22,249 nucleotides of DNA, from NCBI GenBank assembly GCA_008932965.1, contig WBXG01000026.1, positions 1-22,249 of the forward strand, in the 5' to 3' direction. The notes below the pieces were generated by a model, which did not search any database, was not told the DNA's origin, and worked only from the letters and a program-made list of their open reading frames with translations. The stretch is from Verrucomicrobiota bacterium (GTDB lineage Bacteria > Verrucomicrobiota > Verrucomicrobiia > Chthoniobacterales > UBA6821). Shown one piece after another: positions 4,464-22,044 of the stretch (the first letter of the stretch is position 1; every line of letters begins with the position of its first letter). Made by a program: the position numbers and the translations under genes.

Positions 4464-4480
4464 TAATTGTATTCCATACT

Positions 4481-5593: not shown

Positions 5594-5666
5594 GCATCGT
5601 TGGATAAGAGGCTTTGATGATTGAGGAACATGGATGCAAGACCTTCCAATAATTGTAAAAAGAGCT

Positions 5667-5708
5667 TTCCGTCTTTCGCAGTAGATTAGTATGATATATG
5701 CGGGTTAA
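5667..5708 (+). repeat. Right-end fragment of the repeat family, abutting copy A. It may be the tail of a decayed copy that reaches back to about 5600.
   Basis: ttccgtctttcgcagtagattagtatgatatatgcgggttaa aligns with the right end of copy A (cttccgtagtagatcggtgtgaaatatgcgggttaa). It shares TTAA 5705-5708 with copy A. Confidence 0.6.
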
Positions 5709-5888
5709 CCCGGATATTTCATACTGATCGTAACGAGGAGGCCGCGAAGGCTGATGGGGTAAGGCGAGCGATGAAGTCTGACGACGGCTGTATGAGTACA
5801 TACTGCCCGAGGAAGACTTCGAGATCAACGCAGCATCCATCTGGCTTCCCGGCTTCCGTAGTAGATCGGTGTGAAATATGCGGGTTAA
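5705..5888 (+). repeat. Repeat family copy A (short form, 184 bp), MITE-like with 26-bp terminal inverted repeats
   Basis: The left TIR is 5705-5730 (ttaacccggatatttcatactgatcg). The right TIR is 5863-5888 (agatcggtgtgaaatatgcgggttaa). TTAA sits at both ends. The copy is homologous along its length to 8162-8346 and to parts of 11626-11901, 18285-18428 and 21754-22025. Confidence 0.9.
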
Positions 5889-7461
5889 GATTCTCAACTT
5901 TCCTAAAATCACTCCCATGCCTATTATTGGAACAAGTTCTGAAGTTAATTTTGATTCGCTAAATGATCTGACCACGCAAACAACCGCTGGACCCACGTCA
6001 GTGCTTGATAATGCGCGTTTAAGTCTTCAAAAAAACAAAAAAGGTAATGAGATCCTCGTTGCTTCCCAAGGAACGTTATCTGATGGGCTCTATTCTATTT
6101 GGGCTTATTTTCATCCGCAACAGGCTGCGAAAGCACGTCTTGATACCTTAACTGCAATTAAAGACAAAATTGCCTCTTTCTATGGTAGCGATTCAGAACA
6201 AAAGATTTTTAATAAACTCGCGGAGTCTAGCACTAATCCCCGGCAAAGCAGTACGATTCGCTCCTATTATTTCACTGCGAATGATCTGAAAAATTTTGCT
6301 AATGCTGCGAAAGCAACAGAATTAGTAATAAATTGTCCAGATAAGAGTCTTGCAGATGCTTTATTTGACAATCAATTTCGAATACCTACCGAGCAAGATC
6401 AGAAAATTGCGAGTGGTAATGATGATGCAACAGGACTCGCTCGTCTTTTGAGTAGTCAATTTGATATCCGAGACCCTGTCTATAAACGAGTTGCTGATAC
6501 TGCTTTTAATGAAGAATTAAAATCATTATCTCAGCCACCAAAAATAGAATATGATAATTTGACAAAGAAAAATATAGAGGACTACAAGGAGCTTGGTACA
6601 ATAACAGCTAAATTTAAAAAGTCACAACTGCCCTCTCTCACCAAGGAATTAAAACTCGAAAAAGCAGAAAAAGCTTTTGATACGGCCGTAAAAAACTTCT
6701 TAGATCAAAATCCCAAGACTACGGTTGATTTGCTGCAGGCCTTTCTTAATAAATATTCTAAGCAATTACTTGACCAGAATCCAGTTCCTGAAGCACCGGC
6801 AGAAGATTCTACTCAAGAAACAGGTTCTCCCGAAGAACAGCCTAAAGAAAACAATCCACTTGCTGGTATTGACGCGAGAAAGATTGTAACCACTAAGTTG
6901 ACTCTAGACTTTAAGAACCTCTCAGAGCAGATAAGCACCATTCGAAGGGAAAGAAATTATGATCAGTTTTTTAAATTGTTGAGCAACCTCAGCAACGACA
7001 AAGTTAGCTTTAAAAATGCTGATAATAAAGAGCTTACTAAAAATGGAAAAGATTATTTTACCCAGAGTCTCCTGGATGTTTTTACGGTTACTAAGGAAAA
7101 CGAAGATGCTGTTACTTTTTTTACAAAACTGGGAAAATTTTTAGCAAGTGTACCAGAGAAAGTTAGTGAAATAACAGAAACTCATCACCAAGAAGCCGCA
7201 CAATTGTTGGGTATGGCTCAAGAGGTTATACGTAAGAACCAGCTCAATCAAGAAGCAGTAGCTGCATATTCAAAAGCGATCAAAGATTATGTTGAATTTC
7301 AGATAAAGAATGAGCAACCGCAACCAACAGGAACGATTAAACAAGGTGATACAGTAGGAGGCATTCAAGCACCTCGTGTGCAGCCGCTCCTCTCCCCTGA
7401 TGCAATAGATTTACTTCAAGAAGCTATCTCATTTCTAACTCCAGATAGTTCTGATCCGTGA
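5878..7461 (+). CDS. Hypothetical protein (orphan, A+T-rich, predicted helical, no recognisable domain)
   Basis: A long ORF of 527 aa. The ATG at 5878 lies inside the right TIR of copy A (gaaatATGcgggttaa). An alternative start is the ATG at 5917 (MPIIGTSSEV..). There is no signal peptide or TM segment and I recognise no family motif. Confidence 0.65.
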   Translation: MRVKILNFPKITPMPIIGTSSEVNFDSLNDLTTQTTAGPTSVLDNARLSLQKNKKGNEILVASQGTLSDGLYSIWAYFHPQQAAKARLDTLTAIKDKIASFYGSDSEQKIFNKLAESSTNPRQSSTIRSYYFTANDLKNFANAAKATELVINCPDKSLADALFDNQFRIPTEQDQKIASGNDDATGLARLLSSQFDIRDPVYKRVADTAFNEELKSLSQPPKIEYDNLTKKNIEDYKELGTITAKFKKSQLPSLTKELKLEKAEKAFDTAVKNFLDQNPKTTVDLLQAFLNKYSKQLLDQNPVPEAPAEDSTQETGSPEEQPKENNPLAGIDARKIVTTKLTLDFKNLSEQISTIRRERNYDQFFKLLSNLSNDKVSFKNADNKELTKNGKDYFTQSLLDVFTVTKENEDAVTFFTKLGKFLASVPEKVSEITETHHQEAAQLLGMAQEVIRKNQLNQEAVAAYSKAIKDYVEFQIKNEQPQPTGTIKQGDTVGGIQAPRVQPLLSPDAIDLLQEAISFLTPDSSDP

Positions 7462-7474
7462 ACCCGGATACGGA

Positions 7475-8131
7475 TTAAAAAACCAACATTGCTCCTTGTG
7501 CTTTCTTCCACATTTCAAGCTGAGAGGGAGTTAAAACCTTCAGCATCGCAGCGGCATGTTGCAAGCGATTTTTTCTTAGGGCGATGATCTGGCGATGGTA
7601 GTTCAACTTTCCCTGATTTGCCTTGAGGTTAATAGCAGCTGCTTTCTTGTTAGCATCATGGGCGAGAGCAGTAATCTTTTTTTTCTGCTGCTCACTCATT
7701 CCTAAAAGTTGTTGTTCGGAAGGAGCTGTGAGCATTGTTCCCCCAAGCACTTGTCGCTCGACCTCACGAAGACGTCGACGCTGACGAGAATTTAAAAGAG
7801 CCATGACTCGTTCGTTATAAGTCACTCCAAGATGGTCTAACTCGACTTGTAATCGGGCAGTATCTGAGGAGGCTTTCCATCCTGCCTCCGTGATTTTCAT
7901 TGCTGCAGCACGATAATCATTACGCAAACCTCCAATAATGCTGCGTTGTAGCGAGGTTAAATGGAGATCCTTCTCCACATGCTCGAGACTGACAAGGAGA
8001 GGAAGGGAGCCGGGATTCTCTTTTTTAGCCTCATACGTCGTGATAGAATCAGCTCTGACACCCGTTACTACAGTGAGGTACCCGCTCATCATGAGCAGAA
8101 AAAAGGAGCGTTTGAATAGTGAGATCATCAT
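7475..8131 (-). CDS. Periplasmic LTXXQ-motif protein (Spy/CpxP-like)
   Basis: The N-terminus has a signal peptide (MMISLFKRSFFLLMMSGYLTVVTGVRA). LTxxQ-like motifs recur (LTSLQ, LNSRQ, MSEQQ, LTPSQ) in a basic, helical protein of 218 aa. Confidence 0.5.
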   Translation of the reverse strand: MMISLFKRSFFLLMMSGYLTVVTGVRADSITTYEAKKENPGSLPLLVSLEHVEKDLHLTSLQRSIIGGLRNDYRAAAMKITEAGWKASSDTARLQVELDHLGVTYNERVMALLNSRQRRRLREVERQVLGGTMLTAPSEQQLLGMSEQQKKKITALAHDANKKAAAINLKANQGKLNYHRQIIALRKNRLQHAAAMLKVLTPSQLEMWKKAQGAMLVF

Positions 8132-8161
8132 ATTAAAAATGTAATAGCTCTTGAGTTGTTC

Positions 8162-8346
8162 CTTAACACGAATATTTCATACTAATCATACCGAGGAGGC
8201 TGCGAAGCTAGATGGGGTTAGGCGAGAGATGAAGTCTGACGACGGCTGTGTGTGAACACACTGCCTGAGGAAGACTTCGAGATTAATGCAGCATCCACTC
8301 TTGCTTCCCGGATTCCGTAGGTGATTGGTATGAAATATTCGGGTTA
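8162..8346 (+). repeat. Repeat family copy B (short form, 185 bp)
   Basis: The sequence runs ttaacacgaatatttcatactaatca ... ggtatgaaatattcgggttaa with TTAA at both ends. It is colinear with copy A but carries many substitutions, some of them compensatory in the internal stems. Confidence 0.9.
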
Positions 8347-8424
8347 ACATATGAGGAAACTACCTCAAGATTGAAATCTCTACTCTAACATGGAAGTGGA
8401 ATCACAAAACAAAAAAAAGTGATC

Positions 8425-8462
8425 ATTAACCCGCATATTTCATACTGGTCGTGACGAAGAAG
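8425..8462 (+). repeat. Solo left-end fragment of the repeat family
   Basis: ttaacccgcatatttcatactggtcgtgacgaagaag matches the first ~37 nt of copy A (ttaacccggatatttcatactgatcgtaacgaggagg). Similarity then stops. Confidence 0.7.
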
Positions 8463-8475
8463 ATTGGAAAAACTG

Positions 8476-9969
8476 TTAAACGATTCTTGAGCTAATAGAA
8501 CCATCTTCAAATTCTGTCTGAAGGGTTGCCCCTGGACTCCAGTTCTTTGAGGAGCTTACCACGGTACCGCTGAGGTCTCGAGTAATAGTAAATCCGCGTG
8601 CCAGTGTTGCTCGAGGACTCAGAGCAGCCAAGGAAGAACGTAAATTTTCGATACGTCCACGAATGAGTTCGAGTCGGTGATGAAGATCATACTCCAACTG
8701 CTTTTTATTGGTCGTGTAGCGCTGTTGAGCTTGGAGAATGACATGGCGTGGATGATGCGAGCGCAAGCATGCGGAGGCCCGCTCTATTTGAAATCTGGCC
8801 TCTTCACACCGACGTTGAATAGGATTCTCTAATCTCTGCTCAAGATGATCGATACGTTGTTGTACTTCGGAGAGAAACCGTTCTGGAGCACGAAAGAGAA
8901 TGGTATTTTCGAGCCTCCTTGTTTCACTAGAACGTTGCTCCCATGAGCCCGTTGTCTCCCGAACAATACGTCTTAGGAGCGATCTTGCTTGTTCGAGCAA
9001 AGCGATACTATCTGCTGCAATAAGCTCTGCTGCTGCACTGGGAGTCGGTGCTCGTAGATCAGCAGCAAAATCACTCAGAGTAAAATCGATCTCATGTCCT
9101 ACTGCACTCACTATTGGAAGAGAACTTGCCACAATCGCTCTGACGATCACCTCTTCGTTAAATTCCCACAGATCTTCCAAACTACCTCCCCCACGAGTAA
9201 GAACAATGAGATCGAGGGGACCCAATGCCAACGAATTCAACTCTTCGATGGCTCTAGCAATCTCACCAGCAGCTCCTTTTCCTTGAACTCGTACAGGATA
9301 AATCACCACCTGCAATCCGGGATGGCGCCGGTGAAGAACCTTGAGAAAATCAGCAAGTGCTGCTCCCGTAGGGGAAGTCACAACACCAATACGCTTTGGA
9401 AACTTTGGAAGTGAACGCTTCCGAGAAGGATCAAATAATCCCTCTCGAACCAGTTGTTGCTTGAGAGCTTCCAAGCGCGCTTGTAAAAGACCTTCTCCTT
9501 TGAGTTGGACGAGACGCACGAGGAGCTGATACTGACCACGTGGTTGATAAACAGTTACCTCCCCATGCACTTGCACCGCTATTCCATCTGCTAGAGATAA
9601 CGGAGGCATCATTGCTGCAGCACGCCCAAAAAGCACGCAGGCGATCTGAGAATCACTATCTTTTAGAGTAAAATAGTGATGTCCGGAGGATTGCTTACGA
9701 TAATTGGAAATTTCTCCCTCCACCCAAACGGTTCCAATTCCCTCTTCTAGTAACCGAGCTACACGCTTGGTCACTTGACTCACTGTCATGATCCTAGGCA
9801 CGAGGGGTGTTTGAGGGAGCGTCTCTCCTACTGGTTCTCCCTTTGCTAGAATTATTTTTTTAGTCCGAGGTGCTCTTTTTTCACGGGGTATAAACGAGAC
9901 TTCCTGAAGAGGCCCCATAGAAAAACTAAGCTCTCCTTGTTTTAAAATCTGGTTTGTTTCCTGCATCAC
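8476..9969 (-). CDS. xseA: Exodeoxyribonuclease VII large subunit
   Basis: MTVSQVTKRVARLLEEGIGTVWVEGEISNYRKQSSGHHYFTLKDS is the OB-fold signature, followed by the VVTSPTGAA catalytic region and a long coiled-coil C-terminus. The true start may be an internal Met (MTVSQV..). Confidence 0.9.
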   Translation of the reverse strand: MMQETNQILKQGELSFSMGPLQEVSFIPREKRAPRTKKIILAKGEPVGETLPQTPLVPRIMTVSQVTKRVARLLEEGIGTVWVEGEISNYRKQSSGHHYFTLKDSDSQIACVLFGRAAAMMPPLSLADGIAVQVHGEVTVYQPRGQYQLLVRLVQLKGEGLLQARLEALKQQLVREGLFDPSRKRSLPKFPKRIGVVTSPTGAALADFLKVLHRRHPGLQVVIYPVRVQGKGAAGEIARAIEELNSLALGPLDLIVLTRGGGSLEDLWEFNEEVIVRAIVASSLPIVSAVGHEIDFTLSDFAADLRAPTPSAAAELIAADSIALLEQARSLLRRIVRETTGSWEQRSSETRRLENTILFRAPERFLSEVQQRIDHLEQRLENPIQRRCEEARFQIERASACLRSHHPRHVILQAQQRYTTNKKQLEYDLHHRLELIRGRIENLRSSLAALSPRATLARGFTITRDLSGTVVSSSKNWSPGATLQTEFEDGSISSRIV

Positions 9970-9978
9970 AATACTATT

Positions 9979-11607
9979 TTAAATAATAGGATTTTGAGGA
10001 GTAAGAAGCCGCTCAATAGCACCAGCAATTTCATTTTCTGGCACATGAGGTAAAAAATATGCTGCTAGTAAATTGCGCTGTTCTCCATGGAGCCTTGTTA
10101 AAGCTATCTCACATTGATTTAATAGCACATTTTTCCGCGGCACAGGCATTGCATTAGTAATCTGTTGTAGGGGATTGACTGCAGCTAGTGCTCTCTCATG
10201 GAGATTTTGAAAATAATAGGGAGCATCTCCTACATTGGTTAAGACAAGGCTATCATATTTAAACTTGGTACTGAGTCCTGCACATTGAAATCCAGAAGCT
10301 CTAAGTTCATTTATTCTAGCGGATGTGGCATCACCTTGAGAGTAAGAATTTACAGACTCTAAAAAGAAATTTGCAGACATTTTTAGGAAGGCTGAAGCAC
10401 TTGAATATTCTTTTATATCTTCGACCTGCTGCAGATTTAAATCAACCTCTTGAGGGATTATTGCTAACAAATCATCCACTGCATGCTGGCAGGCAAATGC
10501 AAAATTAATACTCTTTTTTGCGTTGAAAATAGTTAAACGAATAGGTTGGTCTAGTAGTTCAGTGACATTGTCTGGTACTTGTTCACCTGCTGCTCTCCTT
10601 TGCCCCCTTACTTCCTGTAAGAACCTAACAGCGTTTTGATGTATGAAAATATTTTCTTTAATAATACTCCCAGCAATTGCATAGCAATCTATTTGCATCA
10701 ATTGAGATTTAATATGGGTAAGGGATTTTTGGGATATTGGAATGGCATTTTCTTGATGGTCAGTAATAGCTTCTCTAGCGGTGGCAACAAGATTGGTACA
10801 AAGAGTAGTACAATCCTCTAGTTTCGCGATCACAGCTCTAACATGAGTCTTAAAGTTGTTTCCAGCCGCAAGCTGCAAGTTTAAATTACTCTTATCATTT
10901 AAATTGATTTGAACCCTCTGACGCTCTTCTGGCACAGGATCAGTAAGCATCGTTGCTGTTTCAACAATATCATTCTGAAGCATGGTGATTTCACGACACG
11001 CATCACGCTGTAACAATGGTAATATTATTGGAGCGTTGTGAGCTGGATTTGAATAGAAAGCACATTTATTGAAATAACTATGATTATCCCATAACTCTAA
11101 AGGAGGAAGTTCTATATCTTCATGAGGTGTTGCAGCAATGTGATGATAATCTTGTTCATGCTGTTGCATTCTACTTTCATACTCTATTCTCGTTTGATTG
11201 GCTTGGTCCCTAGCAGCTATAACATCTAAATGTTCTCGGCCTAGGAAAACTTGGAGAGCCGCTTCAGTCAATCGATTAGGATCTGCTGCTGCAGGAGCTG
11301 GAGCTACCTCAGCACCTTTCTCTAAAATGGCTGCAGCTAACGTTGAAGAAACCTCTGGGAGAGAAAGAATAGTATGATCTTCCAGATTATGAGCGGAGTC
11401 ACTAATTGGAAAGGGAGTGCTTCGCCCTTCGCTGCTAGATAATGAAGCAATCGACGATTCACTAGAGGGAATCTCCTCTATAGAATGATCAAAGGCATCA
11501 CTAAAACTACGTCTATGCAATTGAGAAGAACCATCCGGATCCTCTGCCTCCGTTGAAGTATGAGGGCTACTAGTAGAACTTGTGATTTTTAAAGATGGAT
11601 TAGACAT
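9979..11607 (-). CDS. Hypothetical protein (orphan, with a Ser/Thr/Glu-rich disordered N-terminus)
   Basis: A 542-aa ORF. The first ~100 aa are low-complexity (SSTSSPHTSTEAEDPDGSS...SSESSIASLSSSEGRS) and the rest looks helical. I recognise no catalytic or family motif. Confidence 0.65.
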   Translation of the reverse strand: MSNPSLKITSSTSSPHTSTEAEDPDGSSQLHRRSFSDAFDHSIEEIPSSESSIASLSSSEGRSTPFPISDSAHNLEDHTILSLPEVSSTLAAAILEKGAEVAPAPAAADPNRLTEAALQVFLGREHLDVIAARDQANQTRIEYESRMQQHEQDYHHIAATPHEDIELPPLELWDNHSYFNKCAFYSNPAHNAPIILPLLQRDACREITMLQNDIVETATMLTDPVPEERQRVQINLNDKSNLNLQLAAGNNFKTHVRAVIAKLEDCTTLCTNLVATAREAITDHQENAIPISQKSLTHIKSQLMQIDCYAIAGSIIKENIFIHQNAVRFLQEVRGQRRAAGEQVPDNVTELLDQPIRLTIFNAKKSINFAFACQHAVDDLLAIIPQEVDLNLQQVEDIKEYSSASAFLKMSANFFLESVNSYSQGDATSARINELRASGFQCAGLSTKFKYDSLVLTNVGDAPYYFQNLHERALAAVNPLQQITNAMPVPRKNVLLNQCEIALTRLHGEQRNLLAAYFLPHVPENEIAGAIERLLTPQNPII

Positions 11608-11625
11608 TGGTTTTTTTTGGTTATG

Positions 11626-11901
11626 TTAAATATTTCTTACCGATTGTGAAGAGGAGATTGCGAAGGCTGATGAGGCACCACCGGCGGTCGAGAAACCGCG
11701 GGGGAGACTGCCCAGAGTTGCAGGCTCTTTGAGGCAGCCCTGAAAGGGCGAGACAAGTGGGAGCGAGCGAGTCAACGCAGACATCTGTTTTGACGCAGGG
11801 CTCTATGAGTCCCTACTCTCCAGGTTAAAATATGAGTCTAACGCAGCATCCATTTGACTTCTCGGCTTCCGTAGTAGATCGGTATGAAATATGCGGGCTA
11901 G
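11626..11901 (+). repeat. Repeat family copy C (long form, 276 bp). The left TIR is partly deleted and the right end is flanked by CTAG.
   Basis: The left end is ttaa-atatttcttaccgattg and the right end is ccgtagtagatcggtatgaaatatgcgggctag. The copy carries an extra GC-rich module of about 85 nt (about 11673-11757) that is shared with copy E. Confidence 0.85.
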
Positions 11902-11906
11902 TGTTA

Positions 11907-13178
11907 TTAACTTATGGCCTCTGCAATAGAAGCCACTACGGTATTAATCTCTTTCTCGCTAAGCTCTGGGAAAATCGGGAGTGCTAATGTCTCTAGGGCG
12001 GCTCGCTCTGACTCTATGAAGTCTTTTTTCTTGTGACCAAGGTAAGCAAAGCACTCTTGAAGATGGAGTGGCACAGGATAGTAAATGGCATAACCAATCT
12101 GTTTTTTCTTGAGATGGGCCATGATTGTTTCTCTCAATCCAGCTTGAGGTCCTTGATCAGCGCTCCCCACGATACGAATCACATATTGATGATAGATATG
12201 ATGATTTTTTAATCCACTTGCAGCCCATGGCTCTGAGGGAAGGTGAATACGACTTAGAAGCCCAGCCTTGGCAAAAGCATTTTTATAAATTGCAGCATTA
12301 TTGCGACGTTGTTCATTCCATTGATCAATATAGGGCAAGCGGACTCGTAAAATTGCTGCTTGTATTGCATCTAGGCGAAAATTTCCTCCTACTACTTTAT
12401 GATAGTAGCGCTCTTCCATCCCATGATTTCTGATTAATCGGACCTGATCGGCTACTTCTGGATCAAGAGCAACCGCAAGACCAGCATCCCCTGCAGCACC
12501 TAGGTTTTTAGTAGGATAAAAACTAAAGTAAGACATCTCAGCAATAGCCCCAGCTTTTTTTGGACCATGAATACTGGGATAATCGGCTCCGAGCACTTGA
12601 GCAGCATCTTCAATCACCATAAGGTGATACTCTTTTGCAATGGCCATTATGGCATCCATATCACAGCAGGTTCCAAAAAGATGAATCGGCATCACCATTT
12701 TAACATGATTCCCATGAGCAGAGCGCAACACTCCTGACGTCTCTCGTTTCAAGTTTCCTAAAATCAGTCGTAATTTTTCTGGATCCATCATGTAGGTTGC
12801 TGGATCGATATCACAAAAGATAATCTCTGCTCCAACCCGATGAATACATCCCGCTGTTGCAAAAAAAGTATAGGGAGTTGTAATCACGGCATCACCTGCT
12901 CCAATATTTTTTGCGATTAAAAGTGCAAGAAGAGCATCCGTCCCTGATGAGGTCCCGATAGCCTGAGGCATTCGAGGGGAAGCTGACTCTGGAGTCTCTC
13001 CTTGAGGTAAAATGGCTTCAAGGCATCTCTTCTCCACCTCTTTTTCAAAGATAAGAACTTCTTTACCCAAAATAAATTCCTGATGGTCTAGGACCCGAAG
13101 AACAGCCTCTTTAGTAGCTTCATGCAAAGAGGGGCTCTGGGTTCGTTGACGTGAAAGATCAAAAAGGGGTACTGACAT
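11907..13178 (-). CDS. DegT/DnrJ/EryC1/StrS-family PLP-dependent sugar aminotransferase
   Basis: MSVPLFDLSRQ.., GTSSGTDALLLAL, VITTPYTFFATA, and SFYPTKNLGAAGDAG, which holds the PLP-binding Lys context typical of the family. Confidence 0.85.
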   Translation of the reverse strand: MSVPLFDLSRQRTQSPSLHEATKEAVLRVLDHQEFILGKEVLIFEKEVEKRCLEAILPQGETPESASPRMPQAIGTSSGTDALLALLIAKNIGAGDAVITTPYTFFATAGCIHRVGAEIIFCDIDPATYMMDPEKLRLILGNLKRETSGVLRSAHGNHVKMVMPIHLFGTCCDMDAIMAIAKEYHLMVIEDAAQVLGADYPSIHGPKKAGAIAEMSYFSFYPTKNLGAAGDAGLAVALDPEVADQVRLIRNHGMEERYYHKVVGGNFRLDAIQAAILRVRLPYIDQWNEQRRNNAAIYKNAFAKAGLLSRIHLPSEPWAASGLKNHHIYHQYVIRIVGSADQGPQAGLRETIMAHLKKKQIGYAIYYPVPLHLQECFAYLGHKKKDFIESERAALETLALPIFPELSEKEINTVVASIAEAIS

Positions 13179-13245
13179 AGAGAAAATAAATCACAAATGA
13201 GTAGGAAAGGATACTCCAGAATGGCTATGACAAATAGAGATACGA

Positions 13246-14619
13246 TCAGTTTTTTTTCTTTAAAATCGGATAGCAGCCAAGGGCTACTAAAATGATCAGC
13301 CCTCCAACACCTGCTTCAAGCGGATTAGTAATGATGGTGTAAATCAGAGCAAGGAGACTTAGCAGTGCAAAACAAAGCGAGGGGAGTGGATAAAGGGGGC
13401 ATCGAAATCCTCTACGAGGAGATAAGGAAGTTACAGTTTCCGTTTTCAAGTAACGTTGACGTAGGACAATTAACCCGATCACTCCTAGTAAGGAGCAAAA
13501 AATAATGGGGACCTGGGTAGTTACCAGAACTGCTTTAAATGAACCAGTAGCTAGCACTACCAGCACGAGGAGATACTGAAGGAGGGTGGAACGAATAGGA
13601 ACATGATTTCGAGAGACAGGAGATAACCAGCGAAGCGCGACAAGATCACGTCCCATTGCTTGTGTCATTCGAGGACCAATCCAAATCATTCCACTAATAC
13701 CGGAAACTAAACCGATAGCGATGAGGCCTGCCATGATGCGTCCCCCCACAGGACCAACCAAATGGATTGCCACGATCGTTCCTACATTCAATGTCCCTTG
13801 TAGTGCACTTATCGGGGCAGCTAAGAGAAAAATGGTATTGAGTAATAAATAAAGAAGTATGACCAAAAGCGTTCCAATCACGAGAGACCATCCCACCGTC
13901 TTGCGCGAGGAAATAATGTCATCAGCGATATAGACAGAGGAATTCCATCCCGAATAGGCATAGAAACAAAAGAGCAACACCACTCCTGAGGTTGGCTCAA
14001 GAAGCTCTTGAAAAGCTCTTTTCGAGGGAAGCAGGATCTTTGGTGAAAGGGATGTGTAGTAAAATCCAAACACAATAATACCAGCAATGAGTACAAATTT
14101 TAAAATGGTCAACGTGTTTTGGAAAAGGACACTCACATTCCAATGCAGTAAATGTGCAATAGTAATAATAGTCACTAAAAGCATGGATGAGAGCATCGGC
14201 GGAACTCCTGGAAAAAAATCTTGGAAATATTTTCCAAAGGCCATACTTGCAAGGGCAATAGGAGCTACAAATCCAGCTAAGAGAGTAATAATACCTGCCA
14301 TTGTTCCAATAGCTGGATGATAAATATGAGCCAGATAATAATAATCTCCCCCAGAATGCGGTAAATACGAGGCAATTTCTGCATAGGAGAGAGCCCCACA
14401 AAGGGCAACAATACCTGCGAGTGTCCAGAGCACTAAAATTCCAAAACCACTTGGAATACTCATGAGCTGAATACCAAGGCTGGTATAAATTCCATTTCCG
14501 ATCATCACGGAAGCAACTAAGAATACAGAGGTAAGAAGCCCTATCTTGTGAGGACGTTGTGAGGAGCTCTCTTTATGATGGAGTAATGACATAGAATCCC
14601 AATTTAATGATGAGGGCAA
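13246..14619 (-). CDS. Amino acid/polyamine permease (APC superfamily)
   Basis: 457 aa with about 12 hydrophobic segments. The N-terminal IGNGIYTSLG motif is APC-like (GxG). The ORF overlaps the upstream ORF by 47 nt. Confidence 0.75.
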   Translation of the reverse strand: MPSSLNWDSMSLLHHKESSSQRPHKIGLLTSVFLVASVMIGNGIYTSLGIQLMSIPSGFGILVLWTLAGIVALCGALSYAEIASYLPHSGGDYYYLAHIYHPAIGTMAGIITLLAGFVAPIALASMAFGKYFQDFFPGVPPMLSSMLLVTIITIAHLLHWNVSVLFQNTLTILKFVLIAGIIVFGFYYTSLSPKILLPSKRAFQELLEPTSGVVLLFCFYAYSGWNSSVYIADDIISSRKTVGWSLVIGTLLVILLYLLLNTIFLLAAPISALQGTLNVGTIVAIHLVGPVGGRIMAGLIAIGLVSGISGMIWIGPRMTQAMGRDLVALRWLSPVSRNHVPIRSTLLQYLLVLVVLATGSFKAVLVTTQVPIIFCSLLGVIGLIVLRQRYLKTETVTSLSPRRGFRCPLYPLPSLCFALLSLLALIYTIITNPLEAGVGGLIILVALGCYPILKKKN

Positions 14620-15007
14620 ATCCTAGCGCCCATGGAACTGCACCTAGAGCGATGGAGGATAAAATTTTTTGAGGCTTTTCTCCAAGAGATAATAAAATCA
14701 ATGCTGCCACCTCAGGGCCGATGGTTACTGGAGCAATGAATCCTATTCCAAGAGCACCGTAGCGTTTCCACATTCTCCAAAATATTTTTTTATCATCTGG
14801 CTGAATTGAGAGATGGAGCTTTTTAAAAAGCCAGGCTCGCAACGGAGTTCCAAAAAGAATAATGACTCCTCCACCTGCGCTGTACCCCAGCCAAGCGACT
14901 GCTGTTGCTGCCCATAAGGGGGCACCAGCGATCGTGGCCATCGGAATTGCACTAATGAAGTAGAGCAGACCAAGGCTAAAGGCGGTAAAGAGGGCAAAGA
15001 TCATCAA
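14573..15007 (-). CDS. Small integral membrane protein (function unknown)
   Basis: 144 aa with four hydrophobic segments. It is co-directional and tightly packed with folA and the permease. I cannot assign a family with confidence. Confidence 0.55.
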   Translation of the reverse strand: MMIFALFTAFSLGLLYFISAIPMATIAGAPLWAATAVAWLGYSAGGGVIILFGTPLRAWLFKKLHLSIQPDDKKIFWRMWKRYGALGIGFIAPVTIGPEVAALILLSLGEKPQKILSSIALGAVPWALGFALIIKLGFYVITPS

Positions 15008-15012
15008 TGCAA

Positions 15013-15477
15013 TCAGTGGCTTCTCTTTCTCCTGTACTCGTGAATGGTAAAGGAGTCTGTTTTCATGAGAACGGCAGTTGCTTGAAAATCTTCTTCGAAA
15101 GGAGGAAAAAAAGTATCTCCTTCCACATTTCGATGCACATGGGTGACAAAAAGTGTATCACATGCTGGAAGCAATAACTGATAAATTGCAGCTCCTCCGA
15201 TGACAAAAGTTTCATCCAAAGGAATAGTTAATAAAGGCAACTCCTCAACGCTATGGATGACGGTCACTTCAGGAATTTCTAATGGTTGATGTGTTAGGAG
15301 AATGTTTTTTCGTCCTGGAAGTGGTTTCCCAAGCGATTCATAGGTCTTTCTTCCCATAACAATAGGATGCCCTAATGTGGTTCTTTTAAAAAATCGAAAA
15401 TCTTCTGGCAAGTGCCATGGAAGACCTCCAGAAGCACCGATCACACGGTTTTCTGACATTGCTACAATCGCTTTCAT
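15013..15477 (-). CDS. folA: Dihydrofolate reductase
   Basis: [47 protein letters not shown] is the classical DHFR signature. The start overlaps the thyA stop (ATGA at 15474-15477). Confidence 0.93.
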
Positions 15478-16268
15478 ATGGAGATTGGTGCTTTGATCGC
15501 AGGATAAGGATCATAATTTTCCAATTGAAAATCCTCATAGCAGAAATCTCTTAAGTTACGAACAGTAGGATTTAATTTCATTTGGGGGAGGGGACGTGGA
15601 GTCCTTACAAGCTGTTCGTGAACTTGGTCTAGATGATTGAGATAAAGGTGGAGATCACCAAAGGTATGAATAAACTCTTTTGCACGCAGACCACATACCT
15701 GAGCGATCATCATGGTGAGAAGAGCGTACGAAGCGATGTTAAAAGGAACTCCTAAAAATAAATCAGCGCTCCGCTGGTAAAGCTGGCAGCTTAATTCTCC
15801 CTGACAAACATAAAATTGAAATAAGGCATGACAGGGGGCCAAGGCCATCTGGTCGATTTCTCCTGGATTCCATGCTGTCACAAGATGCCTACGACTATCA
15901 GGATTCGTCTTTATACCATGGATAAGTTGCTCAATCTGATCAATAGAAGGTCCATGGCAACACCGCCAATCCCGCCATTGAGCTCCATAGATACGGCCTA
16001 AGTCCCCCTTTTCATCAGCCCACTCATCCCAAATAGTAACCTGATTTTTATGGAGATAATCGACATTAGTTCCCCCTGCAAGAAACCAAAGCAACTCATG
16101 AATAATAGAGCGAAGATGAACTTTTTTTGTCGTTAGGAGAGGAAATCCTTTCCGAAGATCAAATCGCTCTTGAGCTCCAAAGAAAGAAAGAGTTCCCGTT
16201 CCTGTTCGATCTTCTTTGCGCTCTCCATGCTCAAGGACTAATCGAAGAAGGCGGTGATATTGTTGCAT
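15474..16268 (-). CDS. thyA: Thymidylate synthase (ThyA type)
   Basis: [43 protein letters not shown] (catalytic Cys) and [16 protein letters not shown]. The length of 264 aa fits ThyA. Confidence 0.95.
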
Positions 16269-16324
16269 AGAAAGAATTCTACTAATTTTACATTAATAAT
16301 AGAAAGATAGAAAATAAAAGTGCA

Positions 16325-16367
16325 AAGCGGATATTTCATACTGATCAGGATGAAACATCCGGGCTAG
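16325..16367. repeat. Miniature derivative of the repeat family (the two TIRs only, forming a hairpin)
   Basis: The sequence is aagcggatatttcatactgatcaggatgaaacatccgggctag. The arms 16329-16339 and 16350-16360 pair at 10 of 11 positions. The right flank is CTAG. Confidence 0.7.
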
Positions 16368-16914
16368 TTGTTTGCCTTTTCTCTGCTCCCAGCTGATCCA
16401 AAAGTCTTTTGCGACTTGGGGGTAATTGAGAGCCGGTGGCGCTTAACGACTCTTCCGCAGAGAGCGATGGATTGTAAATCCCTAAGGCTTTTGCAAGCTC
16501 TCGCTCAAAATATTCCACTGCTGCTCGTGTAGGAGCCTTGTTGCTTAAAAATCCAAAAGCACGGCTTAGTAAATCGAAGAGCTCCGGCACGGGATGCGAT
16601 AGCTCTATAAAAAGATCGCATAACTCTGCAAAATAGGAAGCTGAGAGCAAGGTGAGGTAGCCAGGAATCAACCGACGTTGAGGAATCATTGGAACCACTT
16701 CTTTCAAAATATGAAGATCACTTTTTTTACTCCATGAGAATGCAATCTCCACCTCGCCAAAAAGATCAAGGCATCCAGCAAAAGTACTTGCTTGTTTCAT
16801 CGCTCCTTGGGCTGCCGTCTTCACTTTTCCATGCTCTTGGGTCAGCCACACAAGTATAAGGCTTGTCTCAGATAAACGGTATTTACGAATTAAGAGCGCT
16901 TTTGTCTGCTGCAT
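16345..16914 (-). CDS. recO: DNA repair protein RecO
   Basis: MQQTKALLIRKYRLSETSLILVWLTQEHGKVKTAAQGA is a RecO-type OB-fold N-terminus. The ORF track extends to 16971, but the ATG at 16914 fits RecO better and cuts the overlap with the upstream gene. The last codons and the stop lie inside the miniature repeat. Confidence 0.75.
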   Translation of the reverse strand: MQQTKALLIRKYRLSETSLILVWLTQEHGKVKTAAQGAMKQASTFAGCLDLFGEVEIAFSWSKKSDLHILKEVVPMIPQRRLIPGYLTLLSASYFAELCDLFIELSHPVPELFDLLSRAFGFLSNKAPTRAAVEYFERELAKALGIYNPSLSAEESLSATGSQLPPSRKRLLDQLGAEKRQTTSPDVSS

Positions 16915-17569
16915 GGTCGATGCGGAGAGGAAATGTTTTATTGATATAATTCCAAAGAAACCATGCAACACACGATGAAATAATCATTGCTGCTAGGAGG
17001 TCCGAGGGATGATGGGCCCCAAGGACTAATCGCGACAAGGAGATGAGGGCTGCTAGGAGAAGGGCAGGAATTCCCCAAATAGGATTTGCTAAAAAAATAA
17101 TAATCGCAAATCCAAAGGCTGTAGCTGTATGTCCTGAAGGAAAACTATTGAACTCAGAATGTCCCAAGGTCCATTTTCCATGGTAGTAGGGACCATGCCA
17201 GGCTTGCTCCATTCCAGGAGAAACTCGAGGACGCGTTCTTCCTGTTGTTAGACGGAGTGTGTTTGTCACCGCACCCGCAAGTGTAGAGGCTATCATGGCG
17301 ACTAAAAAAATACGTTCCCATCGTGCGCTTTGATATCGTCGAGCTATGTAAAATCCAAGAATTCCTAACAACAGAAGTTCAGGCCAATCCCCATAGCGAC
17401 TTACAAAACTAAAAAAATATTTGGAAGTTGAATGATCCCAACCCACTCCTTCTGCTTTTAAAATAAAAGACCGAACAGGAGCATCAAAAAGAAATGCAAG
17501 CTTCATGAGTACGAGAGCACCCCCAAAGAGCAACAGGAGGAGAATGATTTTTTTACAGCGACAATTCAC
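16883..17569 (-). CDS. PAP2-family membrane phosphatase (phosphatidic acid / undecaprenyl-PP phosphatase-like)
   Basis: All three PAP2 motifs are present in order: RLTTGRTRPRV (KxxxxxxRP-like), FPSGHTA and SRLVLGAHHPSD. There are several TM segments. Confidence 0.82.
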   Translation of the reverse strand: MNCRCKKIILLLLLFGGALVLMKLAFLFDAPVRSFILKAEGVGWDHSTSKYFFSFVSRYGDWPELLLLGILGFYIARRYQSARWERIFLVAMIASTLAGAVTNTLRLTTGRTRPRVSPGMEQAWHGPYYHGKWTLGHSEFNSFPSGHTATAFGFAIIIFLANPIWGIPALLLAALISLSRLVLGAHHPSDLLAAMIISSCVAWFLWNYINKTFPLRIDHAADKSALNS

Positions 17570-17598
17570 AATGAGAGATCAGATAGTACGGCTCGCAT

Positions 17599-17632
17599 GA
17601 ACCCGGATATCTCTATGAAATACCTGGGTTAG
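17599..17632. repeat. Miniature, degenerate derivative of the repeat family (TIR-only)
   Basis: gaacccggatat-ctct-atgaaatacctgggttag joins left-TIR and right-TIR cores back to back. It lies between the PAP2 start and the stop of the thioredoxin-like gene. Confidence 0.5.
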
Positions 17633-17655
17633 CTAGGAAGTGCAGTAAGTAGGTT

Positions 17656-18231: not shown

Positions 18232-18533
18232 GATAAAAAAGTTGATGTTACAGTTACACTACCTAGAAGCGAGACGCAATAGACTTAACCCGGATATTTC
18301 ATACTGAAGTGTCATGAGGCGCCGTGCAAAGCTTATTAGTGCAAGGCGGGCGAAGGATTGGGATGCCGGGCTGTATGTCTCATACTGCCCAAATCACAAT
18401 TCGAGACCAACGCAGTAATGATGAGCTTTGCACAAGCGAATTGACTCATAAGTTTTGACACCCGAGCGAGGAAAAAGCAGCAGGGGAAAAAGGGACGTTG
18501 ACTCATAAAGGATGACACCGGCAACTAAGTAGG

Positions 18534-19676
18534 ATGCCAATGTCAAAAACAATAGCAAAAGAGATGCTGCCTCGGCTGAGACAGCGATATACAATACGGG
18601 GAATGGAAGGGAAAAGACGCCTCATTACCGAAGTTTGCGAGCAATGGGAATACAGTCGTAAACATGCCATCAAGCTCCTCAATGCGAAAGCTGGCTGGGG
18701 TGGTGATCCTAATAAAAAAAAGGGACGACCGTCTCTTTATGGCGAGGAGGTGGGAAAAGTATTATGGAATCTTTGGAAAGTATCTCAGCAACCATGCGGT
18801 AAACGTTTGGCTCCGATGATAAGCCTGTGGCTTCCTTACTATGAAGAGGATCGGGGTCAATTAAAGAAAACCATCAAAGAGCAATTACTCAAAATTAGTC
18901 TGGCTCAGATAGATCGTCTGCTAGCTCCTCGCAAAGCAAAAGCAGGAGTAAAAGGCCGCTGTGGCACCAAACCAGGAGGGCTCTTAAAAACACAGATTCC
19001 GATCCGTACAAATCATTGGGATGTGACTCGGCCGGGATTTTTAGAAGCCGATACAGTTGCTCATTGCGGAGTATCTTTAGAAGGAGACTTTATTTGGAGT
19101 GTAACCTACACGGACATCTTTAGTGGATGGACAACCAATCGAGCAGTCTGGAATAAAGGTAGTGATGGAATCGTCAAAGCAACTCGTTCAGTAGAGTCTC
19201 TACTTCCTTTTGAACTTCTAGGCTTTGATTCCGACAACGGAAGTGAGTTTTTAAATAATCATCTGGTACGTTATTTTCAAGAGCGTCAGAAGAAGGTTGG
19301 ATTTACTCGCTCTAGGCCTTATCACAAAAATGACAATGCCTATGTAGAGCAAAAAAACTGGACACACGTCCGGCAGCTTTTTGGCTACGATCGTTTTGGA
19401 GATATTGCTTTGCTACCTCTAGCTAACGAGATCTACACAGATATCTGGGAGCCTTTAAATAATTTTTTCAAACCTTGCATGAAGCTTCTGAGCAAAGAAC
19501 GCCATGGAGCTAAAATAAAAAAGCGATATGATAAACCACTCACTCCTTGCGATCGCTTGCTTCAAAGCGAGCACATCACTGAAGAGGTTAAAGAAACTCT
19601 TCGTTGTCAACGAGCCGCTCTTAACCCCCTTAAGCTAGCTCGCAGCTTAGAAGAAAAACTTCGCGCACTGCATTAG
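18534..19676 (+). CDS. DDE transposase with an integrase (rve) catalytic core, ISNCY/IS481-like
   Basis: The N-terminal region is HTH-like (RLRQRYTIRGMEGKRRLITEVCEQWEYSRKHAIKLL). The candidate DDE triad is EADTVAHCG, LGFDSDNGSEFLN and HKNDNAYVEQKNW. Confidence 0.85.
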   Translation: MPMSKTIAKEMLPRLRQRYTIRGMEGKRRLITEVCEQWEYSRKHAIKLLNAKAGWGGDPNKKKGRPSLYGEEVGKVLWNLWKVSQQPCGKRLAPMISLWLPYYEEDRGQLKKTIKEQLLKISLAQIDRLLAPRKAKAGVKGRCGTKPGGLLKTQIPIRTNHWDVTRPGFLEADTVAHCGVSLEGDFIWSVTYTDIFSGWTTNRAVWNKGSDGIVKATRSVESLLPFELLGFDSDNGSEFLNNHLVRYFQERQKKVGFTRSRPYHKNDNAYVEQKNWTHVRQLFGYDRFGDIALLPLANEIYTDIWEPLNNFFKPCMKLLSKERHGAKIKKRYDKPLTPCDRLLQSEHITEEVKETLRCQRAALNPLKLARSLEEKLRALH

Positions 19677-19729
19677 GAGCGAAGTTCAACTCGTCCTACG
19701 GACGACTTGAACTTCGCTCCTAATGCAGT
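19667..19729 (+). other. Long near-perfect hairpin (30 stem positions, 29 paired, one C-C mismatch, 3-nt loop) overlapping the transposase stop codon
   Basis: actgcattaggagcgaagttcaactcgtcc-tac-ggacgacttgaacttcgctcctaatgcagt, checked base by base. The stop TAG at 19674-19676 lies in the 5' arm. No T-tract follows the 3' arm. Confidence 0.85.
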
Positions 19730-19876
19730 TATTACTACCAGCAACGTTAACAAAAATACCATCACCACGGTGTCATGACTTTTGAGGTAACATTCCCACT
19801 TTCCTAGACCCATCGGGTGTCATTTACTTTTGAGGCAATGCGCAAGCCGTAATAGATTTAGTGTGAAATATGCGGG

Positions 19877-19955
19877 TTAACCCGAATATTTCATACCGAT
19901 TCTGCTGCGGCTTGAGAACACCTCATGGCACTTCAGTAGGAAATATCCGGGCTAG
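19877..19955. repeat. Short derivative of the repeat family (79 bp), made of a left end plus an inverted left end, abutting copy D
   Basis: The sequence is ttaacccgaatatttcataccgattc...cctcatggcacttcagtaggaaatatccgggctag. Its right half is the reverse complement of the copy D left end (cccggatatttcatactgaagtgtcatgagg). It shares TTAA 19877-19880 with copy D and ends in CTAG. Confidence 0.7.
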
Positions 19956-19970
19956 AATTCAGCATGGATG

Positions 19971-20450
19971 TTAAAAAGGGATATCATCATCCTCATCACT
20001 CGATTCTATGCGTGCAGCAGGTGATAACGGTTTTGATGGAACCTCTTGAGAGGCCTTTGTAGGAGAGCGCATAGAGTAGCCCTCCTCTTCCTGAGAAGAA
20101 TTATTACCTCCTCCTGGACGTGAGCCAAGCAACTGCATATTTTCTCCGACAACACGAAGACGTGTTCTTTTTTGACCAGAGGTTTTGTCTTCCCATGAAT
20201 CGAGTTGAAGGCGACCTTCAATGTAGATGGAACGCCCTTTTTTACAGTACTCCGCTGCAATTTCAGCCTGACGTCCCCAGAGTGTCACATCTACAAAGGT
20301 CGTCTCTTCCCGTTTTTCTCCATTTTCACTGGAATAAAAACGATTAATCGCAATACCGAGATCAGTAACAGCACTCCCTTTGGGAGTGTATTTGATTTCA
20401 GGATCACGAGTAACATTACCGATGATTTGTACTTTATTGAGGTTAGCCAT
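19971..20450 (-). CDS. ssb: Single-stranded DNA-binding protein
   Basis: MANLNKVQIIGNVTRDPEIKYTPKGSAVTDLGIAINR is the OB fold. A Gly/Ser-rich linker follows, then the canonical acidic tail DEDDDIPF. Confidence 0.95.
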   Translation of the reverse strand: MANLNKVQIIGNVTRDPEIKYTPKGSAVTDLGIAINRFYSSENGEKREETTFVDVTLWGRQAEIAAEYCKKGRSIYIEGRLQLDSWEDKTSGQKRTRLRVVGENMQLLGSRPGGGNNSSQEEEGYSMRSPTKASQEVPSKPLSPAARIESSDEDDDIPF

Positions 20451-20498
20451 GAGAAGAATTAGTTCAGGGTTTGCAAACGTCTTTTAATACTTTCTTAA

Positions 20499-20855
20499 TT
20501 AAGCCTCAACACTGGCCTTTTTAAGTTTCATTGCTGGCTTCGGTGCCTTGGTAGTAGCAGTAGAAACTTCTCCTTTTTGAAAATAATTTTGGAGAGTAAC
20601 TTCTTCTAGTAATGCCAGCTTCTGCCTGATCTTAGCAATCGAAGCAGGTTCTGCTGTGATCATAAAGTTAGTGTAAAAAGCAGAGTTTTGGTGACGATGA
20701 GGATAAGCAAATTCTTTTCGATCGAGTCGTTGAATTTCCTCAACAATAGCTCCTTCTGAATTCATTATTTTCTCAAGGCGCTCCAAGAGTGTTTTGATCT
20801 CTTCTTCATTACTGCTCACAATAAGAGCAAGTAGGATTTCATAATAGTTTCTCAT
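20499..20855 (-). CDS. rpsF: 30S ribosomal protein S6
   Basis: MRNYYEILLAL..EEIKTLLERLEKIM..GAIVEEIQRLDRKEFAYP follows the S6 pattern. The gene lies directly upstream of ssb, as in rpsF-ssb operons. Confidence 0.88.
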   Translation of the reverse strand: MRNYYEILLALIVSSNEEEIKTLLERLEKIMNSEGAIVEEIQRLDRKEFAYPHRHQNSAFYTNFMITAEPASIAKIRQKLALLEEVTLQNYFQKGEVSTATTKAPKPAMKLKKASVEA

Positions 20856-20995
20856 AATAATTTTACTGCATATCCGATGTTATATTAAAGGTCGGGGAGG
20901 ACCCTGTTTTTAAATTCTCTGAGGCTGAGGAGTGGCGATAAATCGACAATGCAAGCTAGCCCTTTTGAGGTTTCAGTAAATTTTTAAAACAGTCA

Positions 20996-21655
20996 CTAAG
21001 GATTGTAAAAATTCATCGTTTTGTCGAGGCCTTCTTGACGAAGATATCTTAAGGCATCAACCGCTCTCCTTATGGAAGACTTCATGAGTGGTAATTCCTC
21101 TTTAGAAAAAGGAGCTAATACATAGTGAGAAAGAGATGTGGAGTGGATCTCTAGATCTGATTGAGAAACATCTTCAGGGGCACTCACCCCGAGGCGCATG
21201 CGCGGAACCTCTTGAGTTGAAAAATGAGTTAAAATCGATTCGAGTCCACGTTGACCACCCGCACTGCCCGAGCGTCTCAGCCGTAGTTTACCTAATGGAA
21301 GGGCGACATCGTCAAGAACCGCCAATACCTGAGCTGCTATGAGATGAAAAAAACGTGCGTAGGAAGCAACAGCAGTTCCACTCAAATTCATAAATGTCCT
21401 CGGCTTCATTAAGACCCAATGGGCATCCACATGATCGACAGCAGGAATTTTTGCTATATCTGCATTCCACTTTGATTCAAACGAAAAGGAGACACCATGG
21501 TCTTTTGCCAATGCATCAAGAACTGCAAACCCAATATTATGTCGAGTCCCGTCATACTCGCGTCCAGGGTTACCTAACCCAACGATAAGACGAATCTTGG
21601 TTTCAGACGCTTTAAAAGCGGTATTGCTGTGTACTAATAATTCGCTGTTACCCAT
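20996..21655 (-). CDS. pth: Peptidyl-tRNA hydrolase
   Basis: LIVGLGNPGREYDGTRHNIGF, FMNLSG and the other Pth signatures are present. There is an N-terminal extension of about 20 aa before the conserved core, so the start is uncertain. Confidence 0.88.
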   Translation of the reverse strand: MGNSELLVHSNTAFKASETKIRLIVGLGNPGREYDGTRHNIGFAVLDALAKDHGVSFSFESKWNADIAKIPAVDHVDAHWVLMKPRTFMNLSGTAVASYARFFHLIAAQVLAVLDDVALPLGKLRLRRSGSAGGQRGLESILTHFSTQEVPRMRLGVSAPEDVSQSDLEIHSTSLSHYVLAPFSKEELPLMKSSIRRAVDALRYLRQEGLDKTMNFYNP

Positions 21656-21753
21656 GTGCAGGTTGCAATTGTTATAAAAGAGATAGTTTCGTCAGAAAAA
21701 CTGATATTTAGCAAGGATTGTAATTAGACCATTCTGGACTAGCCGTAATGGGT

Positions 21754-22025
21754 TTAACCCGCATATTTCATACTGATTCGTCGCGAGGCGCCGCGAATCC
21801 TGATGCAGACCCCACCGGCGGTCGGGAGACCGCGGTGGAGACTGCCCTGGCTTTAAGGGGGCAGCCCTGAAAGGGCGAGACGAGCGGTAGCGAGCGAGTC
21901 AACGAAGGTGATGGATTGTGACGACGGCTGTAGGAGTCCCTACTGCCCGAGGAAGACTTCGAACTTGGGCGCCGTATCTACCCTTGTTTCCCGCTTTACG
22001 CACCAGATTGGGATGAAATGTTTAC
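21754..22025 (+). repeat. Repeat family copy E (long form, about 272 bp), with a degenerate right TIR
   Basis: The left end is ttaacccgcatatttcatactgattcg. The GC-rich module at about 21806-21885 is shared with copy C. The central ggctgtaggagtccctactgcccgaggaagacttcg is shared with A and B. The right end has decayed to ..gattgggatgaaatgtttac. A right-end remnant, ccgtaatgggtttaa, sits just upstream at about 21744-21757. Confidence 0.8.
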
Positions 22026-22044
22026 AATCTATTTTTCTGAGATC

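Follow-up and report, generated by a model that had tools for sequence, protein, structure and literature searches.

The repeat family and its setting

The DNA analysed here, referred to as the window, is a stretch of 22,249 nt on contig WBXG01000026.1 (assembly GCA_008932965.1) from a Verrucomicrobiota bacterium of the order Chthoniobacterales. It has a GC content of ~44% and carries ordinary housekeeping and sugar-modifying genes, among them those for XseA, DegT, SSB, Pth and a peroxiredoxin. The portion from 9599 to 16655 is identical to a JGI metagenome contig. The gaps between the genes are occupied by a family of MITEs (miniature inverted-repeat transposable elements). These are very probably short, non-coding elements that carry the ends of IS1380-family insertion sequences (IS) and duplicate a 4-bp YTAR target, mostly TTAA.

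A sequence-only reading of this DNA had proposed that a MITE-like, non-autonomous repeat family with five colinear large copies (A–E) fills almost every long intergenic gap, and our searches agree. The end motif CCCGNATATTTCAYAC, with up to two mismatches allowed, occurs 14 times in the window against 0.02 occurrences expected from dinucleotide-preserving shuffles, and none of 100 shuffles contained 14 or more. Between 5.6 and 22.2 kb, seven of the eight intergenic gaps longer than 80 nt, as defined by the list of open reading frames (ORFs), contain a MITE copy, and the sole MITE-free gap is 20856–20995. A repeat search of the window recovered copies A–E, the short forms and the end fragments as direct- or inverted-repeat families at the coordinates first noted, and the letters themselves bear out the short forms and fragments. 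The elements have discrete ends. Copies A–E share one orientation (5/5) and have diverged as proposed, with 87% identity between A and B and 77% between A and C. Four of these five copies are antisense to the flanking genes, and copies are positioned 6–20 nt from start or stop codons. ORFs that span MITE copies look spurious; the elements are short, non-coding and multi-copy. The copies and their remnants are as follows.

5665–5708, + strand: right-arm MITE fragment, 5'-truncated, abutting copy A, with TTAA 5705–5708 in common (direct-repeat family D3)
5705–5888, + strand: copy A, standard 184-nt MITE; element proper 5709–5884, TTAA on both sides
8163–8347, + strand: copy B, standard 185-nt MITE with TTAA/TTAA flanks; arms of 26 nt, 92% complementary (repeat I6)
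8426–8462, + strand: solo left-arm fragment (TTAA, left end and ~20 nt of arm), truncated beside the xseA stop codon
11626–11901, + strand: copy C, long form; left end without CCCGN, so that its first 5 nt are missing and TTAA is followed by ATATTTC; right end intact, CTAG flank
16322–16367, no strand assigned: miniature form made of the two ends only, flanks AAAG and CTAG
17598–17632, no strand assigned: minimal 27-nt end-to-end form, flanks TGAA and TTAG
18285–19880, + strand: copy D, standard MITE with TTAA/TTAA flanks, split by an unrelated IS into 18285–18437 and 19843–19880
19877–19955, − strand: 79-nt internally deleted copy; TTAA 19877–19880 in common with D, CTAG on the other side; repeat I3 to the D left arm
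21744–21757, + strand: right-arm remnant (CCGTAAT...GGGTTAA), abutting copy E
21754–22029 (right bound approximate), + strand: copy E, long form; left end intact after TTAA, right end decayed (GATGAAATGTTTACAATC)

Two descriptions in the sequence-only reading change with this list. The stretch 19877–19955 had been taken for terminal repeats alone; it reads as a minus-orientation, internally deleted copy, and the 34-nt inverted repeat formed by 18286–18319 and 19921–19954 exists because this deleted copy lies opposite to D. Copies C and E had been listed among the large colinear copies; their extra length is a nested foreign module and not MITE sequence. For annotation, the MITEs account for most of the intergenic DNA of the region, and one of them provides the stop codon of a gene: the miniature form at 16322–16367 contains the stop codon and the final ~7 codons of ORF 16345–16971 (−), and its insertion appears to have replaced the original 3' end of that ORF.

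Distribution of the family

One scan of species-representative genomes with TAACCCGNATATTTCATAC matched at least 93 stretches, referred to here by locus numbers such as L012, and a genome-wide check for further copies thus found the family abundant elsewhere. Most of the listed stretches come from four Chthoniobacterales/Spartobacteria metagenome-assembled genomes (MAGs) of the Verrucomicrobiota: Kiruna_bin-02438, Tobar2m-G38, SMAG_U8253 and Deming_bin.170. Among the matches listed, ~630 kb of loci together with the window hold 296 end motifs, the distance from a left end to the next right end has a sharp mode at 176 nt (184 nt with the duplicated sites), and there are further size classes of ~257–294 nt and a few short forms of 35–131 nt. 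The subfamily represented by L012 (339–524) is the one that the sequence of copy D matches. Chthoniobacterales MAGs from freshwater and soil hold hundreds of copies, and the MITEs probably also account for a large share of the assembly breaks in the freshwater ones. BLAST of copy A against plasmids gave zero matches, the MITE end pattern had none in viral contigs, and 516 kb around distant xseA homologues contained no credible MITE copy.

The same 16-bp inverted repeat, CCCGNATATTTCATA, that bounds the window copies also bounds MITEs with unrelated interiors in Omnitrophota, Phycisphaerales, Alcanivoracaceae and Pseudomonadales MAGs. In these four groups the elements are flanked by perfect 4-bp direct duplications (CTAA/CTAA, TTAG/TTAG or TTAA/TTAA). 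One set of ends has given rise to unrelated MITEs in at least five phyla, four of them other than that of the window.

L025 3547–3677, L055 6592–6763, L064 2840–3077 and L074 2559–2802: MITEs with the same ends in these other groups
L026 56–90 and L082 1156–1190: 35-nt end-to-end forms in Planctomycetia MAGs, with imperfect flanks (TTAA/TGAA and TTAG/TTAT)

Target site and duplication

The four bases outside both ends follow the consensus YTAR, with TTAA the commonest, and the two flanks of a copy match one another as direct repeats: TTAA/TTAA in 50 pairs, CTAA/CTAA in nine, CTAG/CTAG in five and TTAG/TTAG in three, with no CTAA/TTAG pair. A filled and an empty version of one site can be compared at the nested MITE L091 2524–2710, which has CTAA on each side where four intact paralogues have a single CTAA. 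The agreement of the flanks and this nested copy establish that the duplication is 4 bp long and is not TA, the dinucleotide proposed in the sequence-only reading. The comparison of filled and empty sites suggested there did show a duplication, of all four bases. The presence of a MITE also varies at three orthologous sites among the Kiruna, Tobar and Deming MAGs, where the flanks are too diverged for the duplication to be read.

At each of the 12 head-to-tail junctions, the adjoining copies have exactly one 4-bp site in common (11 TTAA, one CTAG), and this sharing produces the palindromic junctions at 5684–5729 and 19843–19914 as well as the end fragments that abut copies A and E.

Full-length elements with the same ends

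As the sequence-only reading had stated, the window contains no transposase with these ends. A search for a transposase gene bounded by them elsewhere found one in three loci. Among the matches listed, three end pairs ~2 kb apart enclose a non-MITE interior, and all three come from other Verrucomicrobiota MAGs.

L077 2061–4065: full-length element, CTAA/CTAA flanks
L050 123–2116 and L083 316–2409: full-length elements, same ends as the MITE

Each of these elements encodes one ORF of 478–484 amino acids that matches PF13701 (E 1e-126 to 1e-134). Of the three, only the L077 ORF was scanned against NCBIfam; it scores 345.9 bits on NF033539, 'IS1380 family transposase', with a cut-off of 180. The repeat CCCGNATATTTCATA stands at both ends of the MITEs and of these ~2.0-kb IS elements, and the outer ~16 bp are all that the two have in common, since their interiors are unrelated. 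Of the terminal inverted repeat of ~26 bp described earlier, the parent IS has the outer ~16 bp only, and the rest belongs to a hairpin that runs the length of the element. A relative in a Pseudomonadales MAG is only 39–41% identical but has the same 16-bp end.

Hairpin fold and arms

Each copy is predicted to fold as a long, rod-like hairpin. That of copy A, single and imperfect, has an energy of -94.2 kcal/mol (z -9.4) on the + strand, against -73.3 kcal/mol on the − strand. The asymmetry is general, since the same (+) strand is the more stable one in 54 of 56 distinct 184-nt copies, with means of -85.9 and -71.6 kcal/mol. Comparison of one arm with the other gave 3527 Watson–Crick positions, 336 G-U, 232 A-C and 915 other mismatches; the excess of G-U over A-C is real but modest, and it is confounded by shared ancestry.

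Alignment of the copies revealed several subfamilies with matched changes in both arms, and mosaics in which an arm from one subfamily is joined to an arm from another. There are also copies whose left arm exactly equals the reverse complement of a right arm. Changes that look compensatory can therefore result from arm exchange or foldback, with no RNA under selection. For the 56 short copies, RNAalifold gave no consensus structure beyond the end stem and the apical stem because the arms of the subfamilies do not align.

The interior is almost a complete palindrome, and a read-through transcript would be expected to form a hairpin of ~90 bp. Since copies lie within a few nucleotides of start and stop codons, they could affect the expression of neighbouring genes. 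It is plausible that promoters or terminators of the neighbours lie inside the elements, as the earlier reading had reasoned from their position; promoter-like and terminator-like consensus sites are no more frequent in the copies than in shuffles. Orientation relative to the flanking ORFs is approximately random, and the data support no directional function. We take the hairpin to be intrinsic to the element; a role at the RNA level is possible.

One promoter-like pair, TTCACA-16 nt-TAACAT at 11623–11650 (−), lies across the truncated left end of copy C and points towards the hyp542 start at 11607. It matches the consensus at 9 of 12 positions, no better than chance as judged by shuffles.

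Searches of the window and its sub-regions against Rfam returned nothing at the gathering score and, when E values up to 10 were allowed, nothing beyond chance-level matches to miRNA and snoRNA families, in keeping with the earlier reading, which had placed the family in no named repeat or ncRNA class.

Origin of the copies and alternative explanations

We propose that an IS1380-family DDE transposase acting in trans mobilises the MITEs. Judging from family membership, such an enzyme would bind the 16-bp ends and carry out the transposition chemistry. Insertion occurs at YTAR, with TTAA preferred and the site duplicated on either side. New copies often enter the TTAA that flanks a resident copy, or the resident copy itself, and insertions of this kind generate the window's head-to-tail pairs, its nested copies and its end fragments. 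After insertion, internal deletion yields the miniature forms of 27–79 nt, and exchange of arms among copies yields the mosaic subfamilies. The copies themselves demonstrate the targeting and duplication at insertion as well as the deletion and arm exchange that came later.

Several observations weigh against this account or limit it. No IS1380 transposase was found by tblastn in the window or in the fetched Chthoniobacterales blocks, which are fragmented MAG blocks, and the full-length elements come from other Verrucomicrobiota MAGs, so that a resident source of transposase is an unproven candidate only. The stability bias towards the + strand (54/56) is not what a purely neutral DNA parasite predicts. 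Strain-level empty sites for the window's own copies were not found: exact-protein look-ups gave one identical 7-kb contig, and a metagenome scan with XseA as the query gave only relatives of at most 55% identity. The window copies with damaged ends (C, E and the fragments) are probably immobile now.

Some of these points could be read in favour of other explanations. The copies might primarily be structured RNAs that have a function, or hairpins that regulate as terminators, as stabilisers or as RNase III sites, with selection keeping the rod-like fold and mobility secondary or extinct. The stability of copy A, the average difference of 14 kcal/mol in favour of the same strand in nearly all copies, the G-U excess and the matched arm changes between subfamilies are all in line with such a function, but we regard it as improbable as the primary nature of the family. 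Orientation is close to random and, of the five large window copies, four are antisense to their flanking genes; mismatches that do not pair make up ~18% of arm positions; arm exchange or foldback can explain the matched changes without RNA selection; the modest G-U excess may come from a few founder copies; and terminator and promoter sites are at chance level, with zero Rfam matches.

Two further explanations accept that the copies are mobile and differ in the enzyme. A transposase of another family with a 4-bp YTAR target could move the MITEs, and the sharing of ends with IS1380 elements would then be a coincidence. IS5 is a family in which a 4-bp YTAR duplication is typical, so the target would fit, as would the IS1380 gene not seen in the MITE-rich MAG blocks. 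This explanation is very unlikely, since exactly these 16-bp ends are found on four elements that encode IS1380-family proteins, three of them independent full-length elements and the fourth a distant relative, and zero elements of another family were seen with them. Less probable still, to the point of being nearly negligible, is the analogy drawn in the sequence-only reading, with a TA-duplicating MITE like those of IS630/Tc1-mariner or the Correia elements. The central TA is indeed constant in the flanks; a TA duplication, however, predicts that CTAA on the left pairs with TTAG on the right, a combination seen in none of the flank pairs against nine of CTAA/CTAA. The nested copy duplicates the whole CTAA, and the full-length elements with these ends carry IS1380 and not IS630 transposases. 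Mobilisation by an IS1380-family transposase is the explanation that we adopt.

Relation to known elements

The element is already of a known kind, and it is notable for its local density, its piggyBac-like target and ends, and the repeated birth of MITEs with these same ends in several phyla. A literature search found no IS1380-derived MITE and no Verrucomicrobia MITE family. The resemblance to the IS1380 family (IS1380, IS1247, ISEcp1) lies in the full-length elements with the same ends, which encode a protein passing the NCBIfam IS1380 model, in ends that begin with CC and in a short target duplication. IS1247, for instance, has 16/13-bp inverted repeats and a 5-bp duplication (PMC3281130). 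The window differs from that family in containing only non-coding derivatives of 27–280 nt with an interior unrelated beyond the outer 16 bp, and the strict YTAR/TTAA target is seen for the present clade and not family-wide.

In a further reading, the family shows that the TTAA target and the CCC ends of piggyBac were already present in a clade of IS1380 elements. Transposons of the piggyBac group insert at TTAA with a 4-bp duplication and have ends of the form CCC...GGG. They differ from the present family in being eukaryotic, in having only distantly related transposases and in their target, as the present family also uses CTAA, CTAG and TTAG. IS1380 transposases serve as the prokaryotic outgroup of piggyBac (PMC10813416). 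For transposon biology, the copies constitute a large natural insertion data set for a clade of IS1380 elements that have CCC ends and a 4-bp target kept strictly to YTAR/TTAA, where a strict TTAA target and CCC ends are piggyBac hallmarks and IS1380 elements are the closest prokaryotic relatives of piggyBac.

Nezha and other bacterial MITEs are likewise small and non-coding, share their ends with an intact IS, are flanked by direct repeats and have very stable predicted hairpins (PMC3184786). For Nezha and ISNpu3 the parent IS occurs in species other than the one with the MITE (Delihas 2011, PMC3184786), and the parent IS of the present family is similarly found outside the MITE-bearing species. 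The differences are the Verrucomicrobiota host, another IS family and sequence, and the very high density (seven of eight gaps in 16 kb). The Correia elements of Neisseria also resemble the family: they are MITEs of ~100–180 nt with inverted ends of ~26 bp, abundant between genes and close to them. Correia elements duplicate TA. The present family duplicates 4 bp and has zero sequence similarity to them.

A structured module nested in the long copies

Alignment of long with short copies showed that a long copy is a short copy with an insert of 85–100 nt. This insert, the module, is unrelated to the MITE that hosts it. In the window it occurs twice.

11678–11777, + strand: nested module in the left arm of copy C, with hairpins P1, P2 and P3 and a conserved 3' tail (GAGCGAGTCAA); nhmmer E 8e-24, covariance model 89.5 bits
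21812–21904, + strand: nested module in the left arm of copy E; nhmmer E 5e-24, covariance model 104.1 bits

Inside MITEs the module is found at three different positions and in both orientations; besides the left arm, it lies reversed in the apical loop of L032, L087, L033, L089 and L093 and forward in the right arm of L047. Other copies are as follows.

L027 4438–4530 and L073 ~6508–6656: module outside MITEs, free in intergenic DNA
L044 1992–2084: further module copy

One module, L044 7049–7135, lies ~50 nt downstream of tRNA-Gln(CUG) 6923–6996. Directly after its TCAA comes a 43-nt repeat of the tRNA-Gln, which begins on the 3' side of the anticodon loop and runs past the CCA end (locus 6923–7177). 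The arrangement resembles a tiny integration scar or an insertion into the anticodon loop.

The module consists of an 11-bp hairpin P1 capped by a GNRA-like loop, the conserved sequence AGACU, a hairpin P2 whose loop varies, the short hairpin P3 and, at the 3' end, a tail that is nearly invariant, GCGAGCGAGUCAA, also given as GCGAGCGAGTCAA. Covariation supports P1 and P2, as changes on both sides are seen in eight of nine pairs of P1 and three of five pairs of P2. Paired positions make up 92.6% of the alignment cells, 84.5% after shuffling and 31–49% after the partner columns are slid. A closing helix (TTGAC/GTCAA) and a 7-bp P4 were considered and rejected; both are present in phage copies and have no covariation support.

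A covariance model built from the module alignment gave 39 matches in bacterial loci. Separately, 39 IMG/VR contigs (loci L175–L213) contain an 18-nt stretch of the tail, and the covariance model confirms the whole module in them. The viral contigs that bear it belong to tailed phages and encode the large terminase subunit, the major head protein and a dNMP kinase. There the module is intergenic; each contig has one copy or two, the neighbouring genes are diverse, and the module may point either way relative to them. In L194 (~5860–5903) and the related L180, L208 and L213, short tandem units such as GGGTGCTAAC GGGGGCTAAA lie upstream of the phage module, and a doubled GACACRGAG followed by GGAGG lies downstream.

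The module had zero family matches in Rfam, also at lax thresholds, and its phage form had zero BLAST matches in cultured phages. Known classes that were considered fit poorly. A miniature of the IS200/IS605 type would share the TCAA at the end of the tail with IS608, but a conserved target is missing from the module, and so are matching left and right hairpins. Neither a group I intron nor an integron attC site nor a hammerhead ribozyme fits in size or motifs, and Rfam found none of them. Tentatively, and with considerable doubt, the module may represent an undescribed class of structured nucleic acid, either an RNA, regulatory or of the small ribozyme-like kind, or a very small mobile element folding as single-stranded DNA. 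For RNA discovery it is a lead to a structured element common to bacteria and phages and absent from Rfam.

Other features of the window

Two features of the window lie apart from the family proper or at its margin.

18438–19842, + strand: unrelated IS of 1405 bp inside copy D, with a 380-aa rve-domain ORF at 18534–19676 and inverted ends of ~23 bp (TTGACTCATAAGTTTTGACACCC)
4444–4471, + strand: degenerate end-like remnant, TTAAACCTGATATTTCATAATAATTG, at the junction of ORFs 3480–4463 and 4481–5593 (direct-repeat family D4)

The IS in copy D is flanked by a duplicated CAAGC (18433–18437 and 19843–19847). Its ORF matches the Pfam rve domain at E 5.7e-5 and an IS481 model weakly, at 26 bits with a cut-off of 224; the exact protein has no record in the public collection. 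An inverted repeat of 30 bp, 97% complementary around a 3-nt loop (19667–19729), overlaps the stop codon of this ORF, and this near-perfect hairpin is the reason for the spurious matches to Rfam miRNA families. The end-like sequence at 4444–4471 lies outside the interval covered by the sequence-only reading and is possibly an old remnant.

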